This document shows positions 3,378-12,729 of a stretch of 64,000 nucleotides of DNA, piece by piece. The position numbers and the translations under genes were made by a program. This stretch comes from Vulcanimicrobiota bacterium (GTDB lineage Bacteria; Vulcanimicrobiota; Vulcanimicrobiia; Vulcanimicrobiales; Vulcanimicrobiaceae): positions 224,001 through 288,000 of the forward strand of contig CAVZQC010000001.1 of the NCBI GenBank assembly GCA_963777315.1, written 5' to 3'. Numbering within the stretch: position 1 is the first letter of the stretch; each line of letters begins with the position of its first letter. The notes under the pieces are model-generated. The model searched no databases and was not told where the DNA came from. It saw only the letters and a program-made list of their open reading frames with translations.

Positions 3378-3414
3378 CGAACAGCGCGGTTCTTACTCAG
3401 TGGAGGATTCCTTG

Positions 3415-5043
3415 GTGAAACGTCTTCTGGCGGCCGCCGCTTTGGGCGCGCTGCTCGCGAGCTGTACCCAAAGCGGAACGTCCGGAACGTCGGGTCGAAA
3501 CGCAGGCGGTCAACCCGGTACGCTGCGCATGTCGATTCAGCAGGACGTAAAGAATCTCAATCCGCTGCTCAATTCGAACACCACCGACGGCATGATCGCG
3601 TTTCTGATGTTCGAGCCCCTGCTGCACTCGGACGTCCAGGGCAATCCGGTACCGATGCTGGCCGCACAAGTGCCTACGCTGCAGAACGGCGGAATCTCCA
3701 AGGACGGCCTGACGATCACATATCACCTGCGCAAGAACGTAAAGTGGAGCGACGGCGTCCCGGTGACGTCCAAAGACGTGAAGTGGTCCTGGCAAGCCAT
3801 CGTCGACAAGAACAACAACATCATCTCCACGCACGGCTACGATTACGTGCGCAGCGTCGGCACGCCCGACGATTACACGGTCGTCGTGCACCTCAAACAG
3901 AGATTCGCGCCGTTCATCAACACGTTTTTTGCCGACAGCGACCAGCCCTATCCCGTGGCTCCGGCGCACGTTCTATCCAAGTATCCGAACATCAATCAGA
4001 TTCCGTTCAACAACAATCCCAACGTCAGCGACGGTCCCTTTAAATTCGTGCGCTGGGTGCATGGCGATCACATGGAGTTCGCCGCGAACGACGCTTTCTT
4101 CATGGGCAAGCCGGGACTGCGCAGCATCTACATTCGCATCGTTCCGGACGAAAACACGGCGATCAATCTCTTGCGCACGCACGAGCTGGACTGGATGTAC
4201 CAGGCGTCGATCAACAATTATCCGCAAGCGCGCAATATCCCCGGGGTCCGGCTCGCCTGGGTCGACGTCAACGGCTACGAGTACAGCCAATTGAACGTCC
4301 AGCGGCCGTACTTGCAGGACGCGCGCGTGCGGCGCGCCATCGCGTACGCGATAGACAAGCGGCGCATCGTCGACACGACGACGTTCGGCCAAGAAAAAAT
4401 CGCAACCGAGGATCAGCCTCCGTTCATGTGGTCGCACGATCCCGGGATCGCAGACTATCCGTTCGATCCGGCCAAAGCGCGCCAATTGCTCGAGCAGGCG
4501 GGCTGGTCGCCCGGGCCCGGCGGCATCATGACCAAGGGCGGGCAGCCGCTCACGCTGGTCATGGTCAGCAACAACAGCAACGTGACGCGCCGCAAAAACA
4601 GCGTGCTGCTGCAAGCGATGCTGCGGCAAGCCGGCATTCAAGTGGAGGTGAAGTACTACCCGGGCGACGTGCTGTTCGCGCCGGCCGGCGAAGGCGGCAT
4701 TCTTCAGAGCGGAAAATTCGACATTTCGCTCGCGGGCTGGTACTCGGGTATCGATCCCGACGACGCTTCGCAATTGACCTGCGCGAACGTGGCGCCCAAC
4801 GGGTACAACTATTCGCGGTATTGCAATGCGGAAATGGACGCGGCGCAAAACATCGCCCTGGACAACTACGACCGGCCAACGCGCAAGAAAGCATACTTTC
4901 ACATTCAGCAGCTGCTGCATCGCGACGTGCCGATGATATACTACTGGTACACGCGTCAGATGCAACCCGTCAGCGTAAACTTCAAGGGATTCGCCCCCAA
5001 TCCGGTGACCGAATCCTGGAACGCGTGGCAATGGAGTATCTAG
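3415..5043 (+). CDS. Peptide/nickel ABC transporter substrate-binding lipoprotein (family 5, OppA/AppA-like)
   Basis: Lipobox LASC after a hydrophobic leader; LRKNVKWSDGVPVTSKDV family 5 signature; GPFKF. Confidence 0.9.
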   Translation: MKRLLAAAALGALLASCTQSGTSGTSGRNAGGQPGTLRMSIQQDVKNLNPLLNSNTTDGMIAFLMFEPLLHSDVQGNPVPMLAAQVPTLQNGGISKDGLTITYHLRKNVKWSDGVPVTSKDVKWSWQAIVDKNNNIISTHGYDYVRSVGTPDDYTVVVHLKQRFAPFINTFFADSDQPYPVAPAHVLSKYPNINQIPFNNNPNVSDGPFKFVRWVHGDHMEFAANDAFFMGKPGLRSIYIRIVPDENTAINLLRTHELDWMYQASINNYPQARNIPGVRLAWVDVNGYEYSQLNVQRPYLQDARVRRAIAYAIDKRRIVDTTTFGQEKIATEDQPPFMWSHDPGIADYPFDPAKARQLLEQAGWSPGPGGIMTKGGQPLTLVMVSNNSNVTRRKNSVLLQAMLRQAGIQVEVKYYPGDVLFAPAGEGGILQSGKFDISLAGWYSGIDPDDASQLTCANVAPNGYNYSRYCNAEMDAAQNIALDNYDRPTRKKAYFHIQQLLHRDVPMIYYWYTRQMQPVSVNFKGFAPNPVTESWNAWQWSI

Positions 5044-5712: not shown

Positions 5713-7500
5713 GTGGGGGAGTTCGCTATCTTGCACGCAAAGGACGCAAGCGCTATAAGAGCGGCACACGCGCCGGGAGAGCATCTCGCTCGCTTGCGCG
5801 CGCTGTGGGATCTTGCGTTGCGCGACGACGCGACCCAAACTCAAATCGACGGCGTGCTGCGCGAAGCGCGCACGGCTCTGCACTGCGACTACGTTGAAGT
5901 GTGGAACGACGCCGCGCGCCAGCGCATGGCTTACGCGTCCGACGAGCATCTGCCCCGGCCCATCGGTTCGAGCGCCTTGTCCCGCAATGCCGCCGACGAC
6001 AAACCGACGATGTTCTTTCGCGATCCCGGCGAACATACTGCACTGCAGGAAATTCTGCGATCGCTCGGCTGGTCGACGATCCTCGTTCGAAGTTTTCAAA
6101 CCGGCGAGCATCGTTCGACCCTGTCCTTTGCATGGAAGACAGCGCGGCAGACGTTCGTGTCGGAGGTCGAACTGCAATACGTTGATTTCTTGACGCACGT
6201 CGTTTCGCGTCTCATCGAACTTGCCGAAAAGCAGCGGCAAATCAACGATAAGATGCTCAACGACCCGCTCACGGGATTGCACAACCGCGCGGCTACGCTC
6301 GATCACGCGGCGCTCATGCTTTCTTCGGCGAACCGCACCGGCGCGCCGCTGGCATTTCTGTACGTCGATCTCGACGGGTTCAAGGCCATCAACGATTCGT
6401 ATGGCCACGCTATCGGCGATAGAGCCATTGCCGAAGCGGCCAACCGCATGCGTTCGGCGCTGCGCCGGCACGAGATTGCCGGCCGTATCGGCGGCGACGA
6501 GTTCGCGGTGCTGGTCAACTTCAACGAAGACGGCGAACTCGAAGCCATCGCCCATCGCCTGCTCGAAGCGATCGCGGCGCCCATGACGTACAACGGCGTG
6601 GAAGTGCGCTTGAGCGCGAGCGTAGGCATTGCGGTCTTCCCGCAGGACGGTACGAGCGCCGAAGAGCTGCTCGCGCACGCCGACGCGGCAATGTACATCG
6701 CCAAGCGCAGCAGCGGCGCGGGATATGCCTTCTACGAAAGCGCCAAGTACGAGCCGGTACTGCTCCAGCAAGCCGAGACCCGCGATCCCGCAGGCAATGC
6801 GGATCGCCCATTCATCCTGTGCTTTCAGCCCATCGTCGATTCGAGAACCGGCCGCATCATCGCAGCCGAAGCCCTCATTCGCTGGCTGCATCCAACGCAC
6901 GGCCTTCTGCTCCCGGACAGTTCTCCGGACGACGGCGGCCGTTCGAGCGTACCGGCTCATATCGATCGCGCGGTCATCGAAGCGGTCTTCGACAGCGAGA
7001 AATATCGCGAAACTGCGCGCTCGATTCCCGTGCACGTCAACGTGAGCGAAGCTGCGGAAAATTTGTTTTCGGCTTATTCGAGCAGCCAGGCCAACATCGC
7101 GATCGAGATTCCGGAAATGCTGGTCGCCGACGACCCCGAGCGGTACGCCGCGTTCATTGCGCACATACGGGAACGCGGCTTCAGCGTCGGTCTTTCGAGC
7201 TTCGGCAACGCTGGGCTGGCACTGCGTCTGCTAGCGGATTTGCCGCTTGATTTCGTCAAGATCGGTCCCAAGCTGATCCCGGGAAAGCGGTTCGGCGCCG
7301 GTTCTGCCGCTGCCGCGAAGGCTGCGATCAAACAAGCCCATCACTTCGGATGGTCCGTAATCGCCGAAAACGTCGAAGAAGAATCGCAGCGCGAATGGCT
7401 GATCGGCGCGGGCGTCGACGGACTTCAGGGATACTACATCTGCAGCCCGCTCACGCAGCGCGACTTTGCCAACTGGCTACGCTACCGAGCCGCGCAATGA
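5713..7500 (+). CDS. GAF-like sensor + GGDEF diguanylate cyclase + degenerate EAL domain
   Basis: DPLTGLHNR, DLDGFKAINDSYGH and intact GGDEF; FQPIVD...EALIRW present, but DDFGTG replaced by SSFGNAG. Confidence 0.9.
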   Translation: MGEFAILHAKDASAIRAAHAPGEHLARLRALWDLALRDDATQTQIDGVLREARTALHCDYVEVWNDAARQRMAYASDEHLPRPIGSSALSRNAADDKPTMFFRDPGEHTALQEILRSLGWSTILVRSFQTGEHRSTLSFAWKTARQTFVSEVELQYVDFLTHVVSRLIELAEKQRQINDKMLNDPLTGLHNRAATLDHAALMLSSANRTGAPLAFLYVDLDGFKAINDSYGHAIGDRAIAEAANRMRSALRRHEIAGRIGGDEFAVLVNFNEDGELEAIAHRLLEAIAAPMTYNGVEVRLSASVGIAVFPQDGTSAEELLAHADAAMYIAKRSSGAGYAFYESAKYEPVLLQQAETRDPAGNADRPFILCFQPIVDSRTGRIIAAEALIRWLHPTHGLLLPDSSPDDGGRSSVPAHIDRAVIEAVFDSEKYRETARSIPVHVNVSEAAENLFSAYSSSQANIAIEIPEMLVADDPERYAAFIAHIRERGFSVGLSSFGNAGLALRLLADLPLDFVKIGPKLIPGKRFGAGSAAAAKAAIKQAHHFGWSVIAENVEEESQREWLIGAGVDGLQGYYICSPLTQRDFANWLRYRAAQ

Positions 7501-9881
7501 CGATGAAGCCACTAACCCGCACGCGGCTCACCGCGCGTCTGCACGCGGCCTCAAAACGCCCCGCGACGGTCATTTGCGCTCCGGAAGGCTTCGGGAAGAC
7601 CACCGCGGTTCGCAGGTTTTTGCAAGAGCATCCGGCCGCGACGCTGGAATTGGAGCTGCTGCGCGAACACGGCTCGCTCACGTCGTTTGCGCGCGGCCTG
7701 GCAGAAACGCTTGCGCCCGTCGCGCCGGGCCTACCGTCCTCGTTCGCGCGCGCCATGGAGTTCGCGTTCCAGTCGTCGCGCGTGGAAGACGAGTTGGCGA
7801 TTTGGTTTCTTGGGCACCTCGATCGCCACGCCTCCCGAACGATACTCATCGACGATCTCCACCATGCCGCGGACGAGCGGATACTGCGGCTGCTCGAGCG
7901 CTTGGTGACCGATTCGCCGCCGGGCTATCGCTGGCTCATCGCGTCGCGAGAGATGCCGGCTCCGGCGGAACGCTGGCTGGAGCGTGACCTTTGCGCCCGG
8001 CCCGTTGACGAGAATGACCTGCGGCTCACGCAAAGCGAGATGCACGAGATCGCGGCATCGATGGAACTTTCGCAGACGCAGACGGCTTCGCTCGAGGAGA
8101 TGACCCGTGGCTGGCCGCTCGCCTTCAGTTTGGGTGCGAGCCTTCCGCGCTGGATCGATCGCCTGCACCAGCTGCGTCCGGCCAGCGCCGAAGGCGTGTA
8201 CGCATTTTTTGCCGAGCAATTCTTTTTGCAGTGCGACGATCGCCTCAAAGAACTGCTGCTCGATACCTGCGTCTTCACCACGCTCGATCGCGACGTCATT
8301 GCCAAAAGCCCATGGCGCCGTTCTTGGCCTGCGCTGCGCGACCTGGCCGCGGACGGACGGCTCGTATCCCTTCGGCGCGACGGTTCGATTCAATTGCGCG
8401 ATCTCTTCCGAACGTTCTTGGAACAGCGCCTGGAGCAGGAAACCGCCACGACGGTTTCCGAGGCCTGCACGACGGCGGCGAATTTGTTGGAGAACTGCGG
8501 GCGGGTAGCCGACGCTTTGCGTTTGTATGCGCGCGCGGGCAACGATGCCGGGGTTCTGCAGCTGTGCGAACGCTACGGGTTCGCGCTCGTCGACGAGGGG
8601 CGCCTGGACGACTTGAAGAGCGCCTTGGCGACCGTCGCTGCCGACGCGGCTGACGGGAGCGCGGTAGCATTGGCGGTAAAGGGGATCGCCGAAGCCAACG
8701 CCGCTCGAAGCGACATCGCGGAATCGTGGTACTTGCACGCGATCGACAAGGCGCAAGGCACCGTCTCGCGAGCCGAGATCGCCTACCGTTACGGCCTCGA
8801 GCTCGTGCGGCAAGGCCGCTTGGACGGCATCGAACTACTCGAGCAATACGTCGGCAAAACGCTTCCGGTAGAACTGGACGCATCGCTGCGATCGACGCTC
8901 GCAACGGCGTACGTGCTGGCCGAGCGATTCGACGACGCGCGAACGATGATGGATACGGCGCTTGGGCTGGTGGACCCATCCGCGTCCAAGCCGCTGCAAG
9001 CCAAAATTCATCACCACGCCGCGTGGGTCGCGCTGTTCACCGGTCAAATCGCCACCGCGCGCAACTGCGCGACGCTGGCAGTGGAATCCGCGCTCGAATG
9101 CGCCATGTACGACGTCGCGGCTCGCGCGTATTCGGTACTGTACAACATTTCGTATGACGTCGAAGACAGCCCTATCGCAACGCTGGAAATTTTGGACCGC
9201 ATTCTGGACTGCGGGCTGAAAGCCGGCAGCGAGCAAGTCCGGCTTTTTGCGCTGCTGGGGAGCATCGATATTCGCGCCGAAATCGGTGACGCCGACGGTC
9301 TGCGTAAAATCGAAAAAATACTCGATGCGCATAGCATCGATTATGCCAGCCGAGCGACTACGGAAGCGCTGTTGCCCGCAGAAGCGCTCACCCTTGCCGG
9401 CAGCGGACGCTTCGGGGATGCGTATAATTTGATTTTCCCCACCGGCGAACGCCAAGTTACGGCCGACCGTAAAGCGCTTCGGTTTTCCGAGATTGCGTTC
9501 TACGCCTCAGCCGCCGGATTCACCGAAAAAGCGAAGCTTGCGCTCGCCGAAGTAGAAAACCATTTGCGGCAAAGCGATCCGGCTTCGCGGCGCACCATCC
9601 GCACGCAGCTCTACTATGCGCTTGCCGTTCGGCTTCTTGGCCGCATCGGCGAAGCGTACGATATGTTGCGGCTCGTATCCGAGCAACGCGATGCGATGTC
9701 TGCGCGCTTGCGCGCCCTGTACGCCTGCGTCAACGCCATTTTCGATCACTGGGAAAGCGCCGATAACTACGATGCTCTCTACGTAGCGCTGCACGAGCTG
9801 CGCGCAGAGCATTTCGGCGGAGTAGGAGCTGCGCTGGCAGCTCTCCCATGCGCACAGGAGCAGATGCAAATTGCTGGATAG
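7497..9881 (+). CDS. MalT-like STAND ATPase with TPR-like helical sensor region, no C-terminal LuxR HTH
   Basis: Walker A APEGFGKTT, Walker B ILIDDLH, ASR, DLRLT and TRGWP motifs of the MalT family; ATGA overlap with the upstream gene. Confidence 0.8.
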   Translation: MTMKPLTRTRLTARLHAASKRPATVICAPEGFGKTTAVRRFLQEHPAATLELELLREHGSLTSFARGLAETLAPVAPGLPSSFARAMEFAFQSSRVEDELAIWFLGHLDRHASRTILIDDLHHAADERILRLLERLVTDSPPGYRWLIASREMPAPAERWLERDLCARPVDENDLRLTQSEMHEIAASMELSQTQTASLEEMTRGWPLAFSLGASLPRWIDRLHQLRPASAEGVYAFFAEQFFLQCDDRLKELLLDTCVFTTLDRDVIAKSPWRRSWPALRDLAADGRLVSLRRDGSIQLRDLFRTFLEQRLEQETATTVSEACTTAANLLENCGRVADALRLYARAGNDAGVLQLCERYGFALVDEGRLDDLKSALATVAADAADGSAVALAVKGIAEANAARSDIAESWYLHAIDKAQGTVSRAEIAYRYGLELVRQGRLDGIELLEQYVGKTLPVELDASLRSTLATAYVLAERFDDARTMMDTALGLVDPSASKPLQAKIHHHAAWVALFTGQIATARNCATLAVESALECAMYDVAARAYSVLYNISYDVEDSPIATLEILDRILDCGLKAGSEQVRLFALLGSIDIRAEIGDADGLRKIEKILDAHSIDYASRATTEALLPAEALTLAGSGRFGDAYNLIFPTGERQVTADRKALRFSEIAFYASAAGFTEKAKLALAEVENHLRQSDPASRRTIRTQLYYALAVRLLGRIGEAYDMLRLVSEQRDAMSARLRALYACVNAIFDHWESADNYDALYVALHELRAEHFGGVGAALAALPCAQEQMQIAG

Positions 9882-10842
9882 GCAAGTCGCCTCGGGATCA
9901 AACGTGACGCACCGCATCGGAGCGCTGCGGCGCGAGATTTCGAATCGAACGCTCGCGAGAACGCTGCCGCCGGAACGCCAGTCGATTTTGGCGGACGTGG
10001 TGACGAAGCGAACGCTGGATCGGATCGCGGATTGGACGCTTGGCCAAGACGTATCGCCGGTTTTCGACTGGGTGGACACGGTCCTCAAGGAATATCCTCA
10101 GCAGAGCCGCTTGTACACCTTGCTGCCTTCGGCAGTCAGCGCAACGCTGGATGTCCTTTCCGAGGAGCCCGAATCCTTGGCGCCGGCGATTCGCGGCGAG
10201 CTGATGAATTTGCAGCAGCGAATCGACGTCCACATCGGCGCTTTTTGCACGAAGCGCCAAGAGAACGAACTGCGTGCCATCGATCCCGTCGATGCCAAAA
10301 TCGACGAGCTGCTGTTCAGGCTTTCTGCGCAGGATTCGCTTACGGCCGAACACTCGCGATCGGTGGGCATGTGGTGCTGGCGCATAGCCAAGCATCTTGC
10401 GTTACCGCGGGCTGAGTCGTACGTTATCATCCGCAGTGGTTTATTGCACGATGTCGGCAAGACGGCTACGCCCATAGAAATTTTGATGGCGCCGCGCAAA
10501 CTCACCGAAAAGGAATGGGAGATAATGCGCCAGCACGCCGTCCTGGGCGAGCGAATTATTCGGCGGACGTCAGAACTGCGGCAGTTCACGCCGGCGGTTC
10601 GCTCTCACCACGAACGATTCGACGGCGACGGATACCCGGACGGCTTAGAGCGCGGCTCGATTCCGTTTGCGGCGCGCATCGTCGCCGTGGCCGACGCGTT
10701 CAATGCGATGATTGCGCGGCGGCCCTACCGCAATCCCATGCCGCCGACGCACGCGATCGAGGAACTGAAACGAAACAGCGGGACCCAATTCGATCCCGCT
10801 GCCGTTGAAGCGATGATTGACGTCGTGCTTAGTGGCCGATGA
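9871..10842 (+). CDS. HD-GYP phosphodiesterase (c-di-GMP)
   Basis: EHSRSV, LLHDVGK, HHERFDGDGYPDGL, ADAFNAM, RPYR, GTQFDP. Confidence 0.9.
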   Translation: MLDRQVASGSNVTHRIGALRREISNRTLARTLPPERQSILADVVTKRTLDRIADWTLGQDVSPVFDWVDTVLKEYPQQSRLYTLLPSAVSATLDVLSEEPESLAPAIRGELMNLQQRIDVHIGAFCTKRQENELRAIDPVDAKIDELLFRLSAQDSLTAEHSRSVGMWCWRIAKHLALPRAESYVIIRSGLLHDVGKTATPIEILMAPRKLTEKEWEIMRQHAVLGERIIRRTSELRQFTPAVRSHHERFDGDGYPDGLERGSIPFAARIVAVADAFNAMIARRPYRNPMPPTHAIEELKRNSGTQFDPAAVEAMIDVVLSGR

Positions 10843-11254
10843 TCCGCATCAACCAAGAAACGTCGATAGTAAAGGCGCCTGACCCCGGAATACCCGAAAG
10901 CACAAGAAATTTCGGGAGGGCGCTCGCGCTGTCCATGCGATTGGGTCCGGGCAGGGCGCTCGCGCTGTCCATGCGATTGGGTCCGGGCAGGGCGCTCGCG
11001 CTGTCCATGCGATTGGGTCCGGGCAGGGCACTCGCGCTGTCCATGCGATTGGGTCCGGGCAGGGCACTCGCGCTGTCCATGCGATTGGGTCCGGGCAGGG
11101 CACTCGCGCTGTCCATGCGATTGGGTCCGGGCAGGGCACTCGCGCTGTCCATGCGATGGGGTGCGGGCAGGGCGCTGGCGCTGTCTGCTAACGCGGGGGC
11201 CGTAGCGCACACCAAAGCTATAGCACCAAAAACGAGCGTCTTATATGAGGTCAT
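10829..11254 (-). CDS. Secreted multi-core repeat peptide precursor (signal peptide + 8 x DSASALP)
   Basis: AGGAG RBS just upstream of ATG 11254; leader MTSYKTLVFGAIALVCATAPALA ends in an A-x-A site directly before the first DSASALP. Confidence 0.75.
   Translation of the reverse strand: MTSYKTLVFGAIALVCATAPALADSASALPAPHRMDSASALPGPNRMDSASALPGPNRMDSASALPGPNRMDSASALPGPNRMDSASALPGPNRMDSASALPGPNRMDSASALPKFLVLSGIPGSGAFTIDVSWLMRIIGH
10915..11185. repeat. 36-bp tandem repeat, 7 full units plus 1 partial
   Basis: Unit GCAGGGC(G/A)CTCGCGCTGTCCATGCGATTGGGTCCGG starting at 10915, 10951, 10987, 11023, 11059, 11095, 11131 and 11167 (partial); no spacers. Confidence 0.98.
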
Positions 11255-11386
11255 AAGGGCTCCTATAATAGCGAGAAAACGCGCAGCGTTATACGCGCTG
11301 CTTGTCATTATGCTATCTTGCTTGGAAGCAGTTGAAAGCTCTCATCGCTATCAGCAGTTGACGGCAGTGGGAACATAGAACTACCC

Positions 11387-11953
11387 GTGATGATAGGTAC
11401 GCGCCGGGCAGTATCTACCGTAGACCAACGGGCGCCGCTCTTACCCGACCATTTCGAGGTATTGCAGCGGCGGGCCACGCCTGCGCTGTTCGTCGTGGAC
11501 AAGCGCTTGCGGGTTATCTACTATCGCGCCGATCCTGCCGAACGGCGCAAAGAATTTCATCCCGCTCATGACGGCTCGCTGCCGCAAGCGATCGAGTATA
11601 CGGTCCTCAAGCTGCTGGCGCAGGCGGAGGACAGCATCGACGGCGTTCTTCGCGGTGCGGTCAGCGCCTCGGTGGCCGTTCGCGTGATCGAGCTCCACGG
11701 AACTCCGCCCGTCTACGCTATTATGGTCGAGCGTTTCGCGCTTCGCGATCACATGGAGACGCTTGCGAACCGCTTCAGCCTCTCCCCGCGCGAACGCCAA
11801 GTGCTCGGGCTGGTCGTCAAGGGGCTGCGCAACGAAGAGATCGCCCAGCACCTGTTCATCTCCAAATCTACCGCCATCTTCCACGTCAAACAATTGCTGA
11901 CCAAAACCGGGTCGCGCAACCGCACGGAAATGGTCGCCAAGATCATCGCTTAG
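11387..11953 (+). CDS. LuxR/CsgD-family HTH transcriptional regulator
   Basis: C-terminal LSPRERQVLGLVVKGLRNEEIAQHLFISKSTAIFHVKQLLTK; no receiver domain. Confidence 0.9.
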   Translation: MMIGTRRAVSTVDQRAPLLPDHFEVLQRRATPALFVVDKRLRVIYYRADPAERRKEFHPAHDGSLPQAIEYTVLKLLAQAEDSIDGVLRGAVSASVAVRVIELHGTPPVYAIMVERFALRDHMETLANRFSLSPRERQVLGLVVKGLRNEEIAQHLFISKSTAIFHVKQLLTKTGSRNRTEMVAKIIA

Positions 11954-12729
11954 AGCGAAAACTCCAAACCGTCCTCGGCTACCGTGATGCGGCCGCCGAA
12001 CTCTTGGGCGGCCGCCTGTTGCAGCTCGCGCGGATCGTTTTCGGCTCCGTAATGCGTGAGGAGCAAATGTTTGACGCCGGCCTGGGCCGCCATTTTCCCG
12101 GCTTCTCCTGCGTTCGAATGCCCGCGCGGACGGTGATCGCGCCCGCGTGGCCCCAGCGCGCACTCGCAAATAAAGAGATCGGCATCGCGCGCCGCGCGCA
12201 CGACGTCCGCGCTCGGAGCCGTGTCAGCCGAATACGCGATCGACGCTGCCTGGGTTGAAACGCGCATCGCATATGCTTGAACGTAATGGATCGTGCGCAT
12301 GAACCGGATCTCCAGATCGCCGACGGTCAGCGCTCCAGCGGGATCGTACTCGCGCAAGCGCATCGATGCGTCAAAGAAGCGTTGATTCTCTCCAACGGAT
12401 GCGGCAAGCCCGTACCTTTGCAGCCCTTCTATGCCTCCCGGATACACGTACACGTCCAGCGGAACGGCGCGCTTGGTGGGCGGAAGCGACGTGAGGTAGC
12501 GCAGCGGAATCAAGTCGACCACGTGATCGGCGTGCATGTGCGAAACGATCACGGCATCGAGCGCGGCCGGATCCGCAAAGCGCCGCATGCTCTGCACGGC
12601 GCCGCTTCCGCAATCCAGCGCAATCGACGTTCGGCCGGTTTGAATGAGATAGCAACTGCAGGCCGTGCCGGCGCGAGGCACTGCGGAGCTGGAACCGATC
12701 ACCCGAACGCGCAGCGCCGAACGCTTTAC
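11950..12729 (-). CDS. Metallo-beta-lactamase-fold hydrolase, RNase Z/YhfI-like (start uncertain)
   Basis: ACSCYL, LDCGSG, SHMHADH, YSADT, GHS and LTH motifs. Confidence 0.85.
   Translation of the reverse strand, partial: VKRSALRVRVIGSSSAVPRAGTACSCYLIQTGRTSIALDCGSGAVQSMRRFADPAALDAVIVSHMHADHVVDLIPLRYLTSLPPTKRAVPLDVYVYPGGIEGLQRYGLAASVGENQRFFDASMRLREYDPAGALTVGDLEIRFMRTIHYVQAYAMRVSTQAASIAYSADTAPSADVVRAARDADLFICECALGPRGRDHRPRGHSNAGEAGKMAAQAGVKHLLLTHYGAENDPRELQQAAAQEFGGRITVAEDGLEFSL

Follow-up and report, generated by a model that had tools for sequence, protein, structure and literature searches.

The locus studied here lies in a 64,000-nt stretch of DNA from a Vulcanimicrobiota bacterium (hereafter the window) and consists of a small gene with tandem DSASALP repeats, a divergent regulator gene and a set of signalling genes on the opposite strand. 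Its features are as follows:

10829..11254, minus strand: precursor gene, 141 aa (leader, eight cores and tail), defined by translation and orthologues
11186..11254, minus strand: Sec/signal peptidase I-type leader, 23 aa, with a basic N-region, a hydrophobic core and an A-L-A site (assigned by anatomy)
10913..11185, minus strand: repeat array with eight DSASALP cores of 21 nt each and 5-aa spacers
11185, 11149, 11113, 11077, 11041, 11005, 10969 and 10933, minus strand: starts of the DSASALP cores
10832..10912, minus strand: tail of 27 aa whose end is a moderately amphipathic helix; kept in the close clade
11260..11264, minus strand: AGGAG ribosome-binding site; GGAG is conserved in upstream regions of kin
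11310..11315, minus strand: TAGCAT in the precursor promoter, likely its -10 element; present in 19 of 31 upstream regions
11333..11344, no strand assigned: near-palindromic box TGAGAGCTTTCA, its right half at the -35 position
11387..11953, plus strand: divergent regulator, PAS-like domain plus LuxR HTH, present in 31/31 loci
9871..10842, plus strand: convergent HD-GYP-type phosphodiesterase, overlapping the precursor 3' end by 14 nt
7500..9881, plus strand: candidate receptor, a MalT-like STAND ATPase that has a TPR superhelix and lacks an HTH
5713..7500, plus strand: GGDEF (motif intact) and EAL (DDFGTG-type loop degenerate) protein, the usual fifth cassette member
3400..5043, plus strand: family 5 (oligopeptide-type) solute-binding protein, upstream and co-oriented, linked only in the close clade

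Translation of 10829-11254 reproduces exactly the open reading frame of the original prediction, with a leader ending in ALA, eight cores, a 27-aa tail and the AGGAG site. The leader is followed by DSASALP-APHRM, six DSASALP-GPNRM units and a final DSASALP, the cores being spaced 12 residues apart and each core after the first being preceded by R-M, as had been claimed. TRF gave four rows for the window, this being the sole long array (period 36, 7.6 copies, score 490). Pfam and NCBIfam scans assigned the precursor to no family, a weak Pfam match of the Pro-rich repeat to formin FH1 falling below cut-off, and an ESM Atlas search with an orthologue of the precursor as query gave no match of at least 0.9. 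Selection acts on the minus frame put forward originally: leader, frame and tail are retained in orthologues, and 177 synonymous codon variants occur within exact cores of 28 genes. Neither the plus-strand frame that overlaps it (10839-11378) nor a start at the in-frame ATG further upstream (11308) belongs to the reading conserved in orthologues, and both were rejected. An inverted repeat in the 5' leader of the precursor gene (11283-11301) has a terminator-like score on both strands, and its sequence is not kept in kin. For positions 9000-12000 of the window, no RNA holder is listed.

A conserved signalling cassette

Gene linkage is nearly constant across 31 precursor loci, with the LuxR gene present in 31, HD-GYP in 30 and the MalT-like STAND in 28, the misses being contig ends, while the GGDEF-EAL gene falls inside the fetched region in 25/31. 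No tailoring enzyme is found in the conserved cassette, judged from the window's genes and the matches to them, in keeping with what had been noted for the adjacent genes. In the shared intergenic region (30 regions examined), the gap between TGAGAG and TAGCAT is 23 nt in 15 of the 17 loci having TAGCAT. The TGAGAGCTTTCA box is a probable binding site of the PAS-LuxR regulator; in a genome scan with a matrix of the box the training site ranked first and no clear regulon emerged.

The HD-GYP metal motifs and the GGDEF motif are intact in the cassette proteins and the loop of the EAL domain is degenerate. STAND and HD-GYP are fused as one protein in three cassette genomes (L085, L086 and L089), and for this reason we take HD-GYP to be the likely effector of the STAND. 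In a tree of 121 STAND sensors, from which two partial rows were dropped, the 21 intact cassette STANDs form one clade (support 0.92), a result that is partly circular because the cassette was found via the peptide. A profile search of 301 genomes, with three candidates per genome, yielded no more full-length STANDs scoring between the cassette and its paralogues. As for peptide uptake, the genome has thirteen tblastn matches to family 5 solute-binding proteins, one OppD/F (ATPase) pair and one OppC. Frameshifts are seen in several cassette genes of long-contig assemblies (L031, L032, L073, L074 and L080) and are probably sequencing errors.

The 793-aa STAND of the window was modelled at pLDDT 91 as a NOD module, an arm and a TPR superhelix (residues ~380-790, matching TPR structures) without an HTH. 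The best structure matches of the model are MalT and PH0952 (8BOB, Z 34.5, rmsd 3.0 over 382 residues; 6MFV, Z 26.7), and a phmmer match to MalT/PH0952-type proteins was obtained at E 1.3e-5. The protein has APEGFGKT as Walker A and IDDLH as Walker B, motifs that vary among cassette members and that place it with the MalT-clade STANDs. It is not MalT proper: there is no C-terminal LuxR HTH and no GerE match, the C-terminal extension of cassette STANDs being only 4-12 aa or ~327 aa of HD-GYP, and its NCBIfam MalT score is 88 bits vs a cut-off of 537. Pfam TPR_12 was matched at E 2e-4, below cut-off. In structural alignment, the sensor model reached Z 13.5 with NprR (337 aligned, rmsd 6.2) and Z 13.0 with RapH, values that are common for helical repeats.

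Orthologues and selection on the core

Orthologues were sought with the divergent LuxR gene and not the peptide as query, and the four kin found had the same leader and different cores. A subsequent profile matched 40/301 genomes of the family (E up to 0.01), and a true precursor gene is present in 24/301, own genome counted; the seven weakest fetched loci (L058-L064) had no leader and were dropped from the orthologue set, and nine further weak matches had no locus, only the region of G121 being fetched among these. Seven metagenome loci and 22 database proteins provided further precursors. Named relatives carrying the gene are Candidatus Baltobacteraceae and other Vulcanimicrobiota (Eremiobacterota). 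The leader is strongly, indeed unusually, conserved across the family; precursors range from ~40 to 189 aa (many <100), with 1 to 9 copies of the core and spacers of 1 to ~13 aa.

An exactly repeated word occurs in 28/31 precursors and follows an [AV]-x-A site directly in 24 of these 28. In 28 genes, 115/124 core copies are exact, and pN/pS is 0.019 in cores vs 0.36 at flanking spacer positions, where the core was taken as the seven residues after the [AV]-x-A site, one duplicate and two eroded-leader genes were left out, and a copy was accepted if 5 of 7 residues agreed, a threshold slightly in favour of the core. Core identity is thus frozen inside one gene and different between genomes, even those of close relatives. 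Such freezing combined with between-genome change is what a specificity-bearing peptide, and not a spacer protein, would show.

Met, Phe and Leu prevail just before the core, where A, K, H, N and T also occur, and Pro is mostly followed by Lys or Gly. Given these varied flanking residues, R-M is no family rule and no conserved cut site, and spacer residues yield no single cut rule. Of the originally proposed 7-12 aa signal, the 7-mer ending in Pro stands as the selected unit and the 12-mer falls away. The mature peptide most likely ends at Pro7, possibly plus one residue. The tail, conserved in the close clade, is absent or replaced in several other orthologues and is therefore dispensable. 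Leaders are eroded in two genomes of one genus (G074 and G121), where short precursors (L087:2080-2208 and L090:5368-5490) carry two copies each of the Cys-containing cores DCAHALP and DCGHALP; in these, export may have been lost or rerouted.

Three unpublished genomes, G021 (L007, L034, L041, L116), G045 (L049, L081, L109) and G124 (L051, L083, L178), enter the orthologue, cassette, selection, box, tree, S53 and co-variation counts and supply the cores GLSPMP, AMPPIP, DTALARP and DAPSALP; depositors' permission is needed before publication, and no conclusion depends on these rows alone.

Paralogous STAND loci carry cores on S53 peptidases

Away from the cassette, a lipoprotein S53 (sedolisin-like) peptidase gene adjoins the STAND at 109/139 paralogous loci (75/99 and 34/40, sets that include a few duplicates and many kin). 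Tandem cores, e.g. DAPSALP, DTSNALP, ESSAGLP and NGATGLP, are located between the lipobox and the catalytic domain of these proteins, usually with Gly next after each, and 30 of the 34 STAND-linked S53 genes in the last batch have at least two exact cores. No S53 is seen at the other 30 loci, several of which are without any peptide. Many paralogous STANDs retain a C-terminal LuxR HTH. The peptidases have the sedolisin catalytic motifs E-x-x-x-D, GD-x-G and GGTS, and one of them, searched against PDB sequences, matched kumamolisin at E 5e-14; a Pfam scan of five saw only Peptidase_S8, with 3/5 passing the S8 cut-off, and no pro-domain.

A control set comprised 40 regions around the top S53 matches of a 121-genome sample, those known beside a STAND being left out. 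Of its 43 S53 genes that are not next to a STAND, 41 are repeat-free, the exceptions being one Pro-Thr linker repeat and one gene with core-like repeats (L291), and the single STAND-linked S53 has degenerate cores. Repeats being so scarce in STAND-free S53 genes, the cores go with the STAND rather than with the protease. At L168, and likewise at L170, a repeat lipoprotein encoded on its own has its core in common with the S53 gene that comes next. The fetched cassette regions gave no S53 match save one core-less gene in L078. Small stand-alone repeat ORFs were detected at 1/60 paralogous loci (L191), and that one was rejected as an antisense shadow of the S53 repeat; their scarcity was considered as a counter to the STAND link and set aside, the cores there sitting inside S53 genes. 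The precursor gene is one branch of a much larger system.

The genome of the window itself (G000) has a paralogous locus, in which the gene after a STAND-HTH encodes an S53 that carries DSPSALP three times, a core one residue off DSASALP:

G000 C2:150580-154374 (L278): paralogous STAND-HTH and S53 with three DSPSALP, reading as one 1263-aa frame

We do not take the 1263-aa fusion as real: a frameshift near the end of the HTH probably created it, since the HTH tail is truncated and 32 homologues of the S53 part (G000 C2:153178-154371) measure 346-421 aa, in a search that spanned only 218-697 aa. The DSPSALP locus is possibly a second channel with a near-identical peptide and cross-talk with DSASALP. 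A second S53 lipoprotein (L279, G000 C2:17463-18447) has no repeated cores and is split by a frameshift. At G000 C4:293500-299361 there is a third MalT-like STAND and HD-GYP pair, at which no core or S53 was found; it is divergent from an exported protein that by eye resembles prolyl oligopeptidase and is a second candidate for cutting after Pro.

Several variants on this theme were observed elsewhere. Mixed cores (e.g. DTMQGLP, DNMQGLP and ENMQGLP) occur within one S53 precursor at L244, L253, L242 and L179, resembling the diverged Phr duplicates proposed as specificity intermediates. Core-like repeats of the DSISPFP type lie apparently inside the S53 catalytic region, and not before it, at L180, while no STAND lies within ~4.5 kb of the S53 gene of L291 (4480-6060), whose six core-like repeats are degenerate and of the SAYPIGL type. 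Small stand-alone peptides with lipoprotein leaders are found beside divergent STANDs at L176:3703-3903 (DASSPLF twice), L177:7693-7827 (GGAMALP three times, at a contig end) and L144:2767-2970 (without repeat), and at L157:4260-4556 and L164:4231-4545 a small exported protein with an Ala-rich helix and an Arg/His-rich tail is divergent from the STAND.

Co-variation of the STAND sensor and the core

Co-variation was analysed in 108 STAND-core pairs, remaining after removal of two false automatic cores and three duplicates; 17 single cores were assigned by eye, and for cores of the LRAIP type the choice of position 1 is arbitrary. Among sensor columns, R698 and R661 track core position 1 best. 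Positions 657, 661, 698 and 701 are all Arg in 70/70 STANDs with a D/E-starting core, and 661, 698 and 701 are kept together in only 12 of the 38 STANDs with a non-acidic core start, whereas 19 of the 38 keep R698. Branches with non-acidic cores hold 34.5% of substitutions and account for 10/10 of those at 698 and 5/5 at 661; column 698 ranks first of 757 (p 2.4e-5, ~0.02 after correction) in a binomial test that treats successive changes in one clade as independent. The four arginine codons lie at ~9468-9602 and the residues are on alternate helices of the modelled TPR.

The same-branch co-change test across columns was not significant (family-wise p 0.14), the leading columns for other core positions were mixed and lay outside the sensor, and in a scan of the 30 cassette loci alone co-variation was indistinguishable from phylogeny. 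A predicted complex of STAND residues 300-785 with precursor residues 24-54 scored 0.14 against a mark of 0.32 and was weighed neither way. We conclude that a charge clamp in the TPR groove, arginines facing Asp1 of the core, has good but not conclusive support from these alignments.

Proposed mechanism and alternative explanations

Cassette conservation and selection on the core support the original reading of a multi-copy, unmodified and exported signalling pro-peptide beside MalT-like/TPR genes in Eremiobacterota. We suggest that Sec export and signal peptidase I would expose Asp1 of the first core, as the leader anatomy and the conserved register indicate, and that extracytoplasmic proteolysis, most plausibly by a family S53 lipoprotein peptidase acting in trans, would free up to eight DSASALP peptides, perhaps each keeping one extra residue. 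The peptide would spread between cells, re-enter through an Opp-type ABC importer, for which genes are present, and bind the TPR groove of the neighbouring MalT-like STAND, where Asp1 may pair with R698/R661. The switched STAND would then control the adjacent HD-GYP and hence the level of c-di-GMP, against the GGDEF protein of the same operon, while the divergent PAS-LuxR may act at the palindromic box of the precursor promoter and so close a feedback loop. As a whole, this scheme of a poly-pheromone precursor that is exported, cut, re-imported and sensed by the STAND, controlling c-di-GMP breakdown, is the one we favour, with reasonable though far from full confidence.

We regard as unlikely a cell-autonomous reporter, in which cutting is periplasmic, uptake is by the same cell and the STAND reads export or S53 activity (e.g. 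acidity) and not density. Sedolisins are acid-active, the S53 precursors are lipoproteins, and all co-variation results would fit such a reporter equally well. Release beyond the periplasm is not assured either, because the cultured member of the family is a diderm with an outer membrane, according to the available part of PMC9758169. However, close relatives have different cores, and this genome itself has two, DSASALP and DSPSALP, at separate loci, as one would expect from specificity codes; amplification to 8-9 copies suits a diluted signal, and the precursor of the window is without a lipid anchor. The broader claim, that a processed peptide is sensed by the STAND whether cell-to-cell or cell-autonomously, is in our judgement quite probable.

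It is very unlikely that the core targets the protease, as an S53 auto-inhibitory or decoy motif, with the stand-alone precursor acting as a secreted S53 inhibitor. The cores do sit at the place of a pro-region, from lipobox to catalytic domain, in proteins where Pfam shows no pro-domain; nevertheless, S53 genes away from STANDs mostly have no repeat, the STAND arginines track the first residue of the core, and the cassette holds precursor and STAND and no S53.

We likewise give very little credence to the PAS-LuxR protein, rather than the STAND, being the receptor in the manner of VqmA. It adjoins the precursor in every locus, its model has a PAS and an HTH fold matching EL222 and VqmA, and a conserved box lies in the shared intergenic region. 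On the other hand, a LuxR regulator of the cassette type found no match at the 40 + 60 paralogous STAND loci scanned, many of them with cores, no LuxR column tracks any convergent core feature (a weak test), and the PAS-like domain has only ~90 residues.

An unprocessed Pro/Ala/Ser-rich envelope or spacer protein, anchored by the amphipathic tail, is highly improbable: the low-complexity Pro-rich repeat, the sub-cut-off formin FH1 match and the conservation of the tail in the close clade would fit, but seven residues are frozen while their neighbours drift, unlike in a spacer, several orthologues lack the tail, some precursors have just one or two copies, and linkage to signalling genes is constant. 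Hardly credible is a RiPP precursor with repeated cores and modifying enzymes encoded elsewhere, for although the cores are cassette-like with Ser and the leader is unusually conserved, no tailoring gene is among the conserved neighbours, the leader looks like a Sec-type signal and some cores have no Ser, Thr or Cys. Amyloid signalling motifs are known from bacterial NLRs, and such a reading was set aside because the cores are Pro-rich.

Returning to the STAND-sensed peptide, DSASALP is probably a chemical signal that is read inside the cell by an NLR-like receptor, related to the immune sensors of animals and plants. Alongside membrane kinases and RRNPP receptors, peptide quorum sensing may have a third class, used by Baltobacteraceae, with multi-copy [DE]xxx[AG][LM]P peptides that are usually N-terminal on the S53 that would free them, are clamped by arginines of cytoplasmic NLR-like STANDs and are coupled to a swappable output (LuxR HTH or c-di-GMP phosphodiesterase), the window gene being a protease-free poly-pheromone coupled to c-di-GMP; taken jointly, we put this at slightly better than even. 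Neither the literature searched, which lacked most subscription papers and bioRxiv supplements, nor the supplementary files of PMC9758169 yielded a description of such a system. If true, it would add to bacterial peptide signalling a class not yet described, in which STAND/NLR-type ATPases gain a self-made peptide ligand and export-and-reimport signalling is tied to c-di-GMP in a diderm phylum abundant in oligotrophic environments. The analysis yields about a hundred predicted receptor-peptide pairs with a specificity code and named contact residues, which are thus testable with purified proteins and synthetic 7-mers even though the host is uncultured. The logic resembles Rap-Phr; the novelty would lie in the class of receptor, in the output and in the fusion of the poly-peptide to a protease.

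Comparison with known systems

Fungal alpha-factor and other Kex2-processed repeat proteins consist of a signal peptide followed by tandem identical cores and spacers. Here the precursor is bacterial, the proposed receptor is intracellular vs a GPCR, and no dibasic KR/RR sites occur between the cores, in spacers or flanking residues. The likeness of such repeats to Phr was pointed out in the part of PMC5199041 available to us, which also describes Phr genes with repeated identical autoinducers. A cyanobactin-like RiPP pathway would differ in having linked tailoring enzymes and a protease, none of which are among the conserved neighbours. From sedolisins of the kumamolisin type, the partner S53s differ in being lipoproteins in which tandem cores replace the usual pro-domain, and none belongs to the window's cassette. 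The divergent regulator shares its fold with VqmA and EL222, at two-domain TM-scores that are low (0.3-0.4) and with no ligand known for it.

The STAND has the NBD-HD-WHD-arm-TPR architecture of MalT and PH0952. The inducer of MalT is maltotriose, bound by arm and sensor (passages of PMC4381067; see also, for MalT-clade STANDs, parts of PMC6468293 and PMC10427625), whereas the STAND of the window lacks the HTH, pairs with HD-GYP and would respond to a self-made peptide.

Rap-Phr and other RRNPP systems (NprR-NprX, PlcR-PapR, AimR-AimP) likewise have a small pro-peptide, here with a putative Sec leader, a short mature peptide, here a predicted one, and a nearby cytoplasmic TPR sensor. RRNPP systems have been defined by a Sec-secreted propeptide of 10-100 aa, a receptor of 250-500 aa with TPRs and directly adjacent genes (PMC10075063, in the portion available). 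In the window, in contrast, the propeptide has 141 aa, the receptor has 793 aa with a STAND ATPase module, and an HD-GYP gene stands between the two except where it is fused to the STAND. Further differences are the diderm host phylum in place of Firmicutes, the output through an HD-GYP enzyme or a C-terminal LuxR HTH, and cores that are mostly fused to their own S53 peptidase. The system departs from RRNPP on three of five criteria and is not a member of that family, yet it would work like Rap-Phr.
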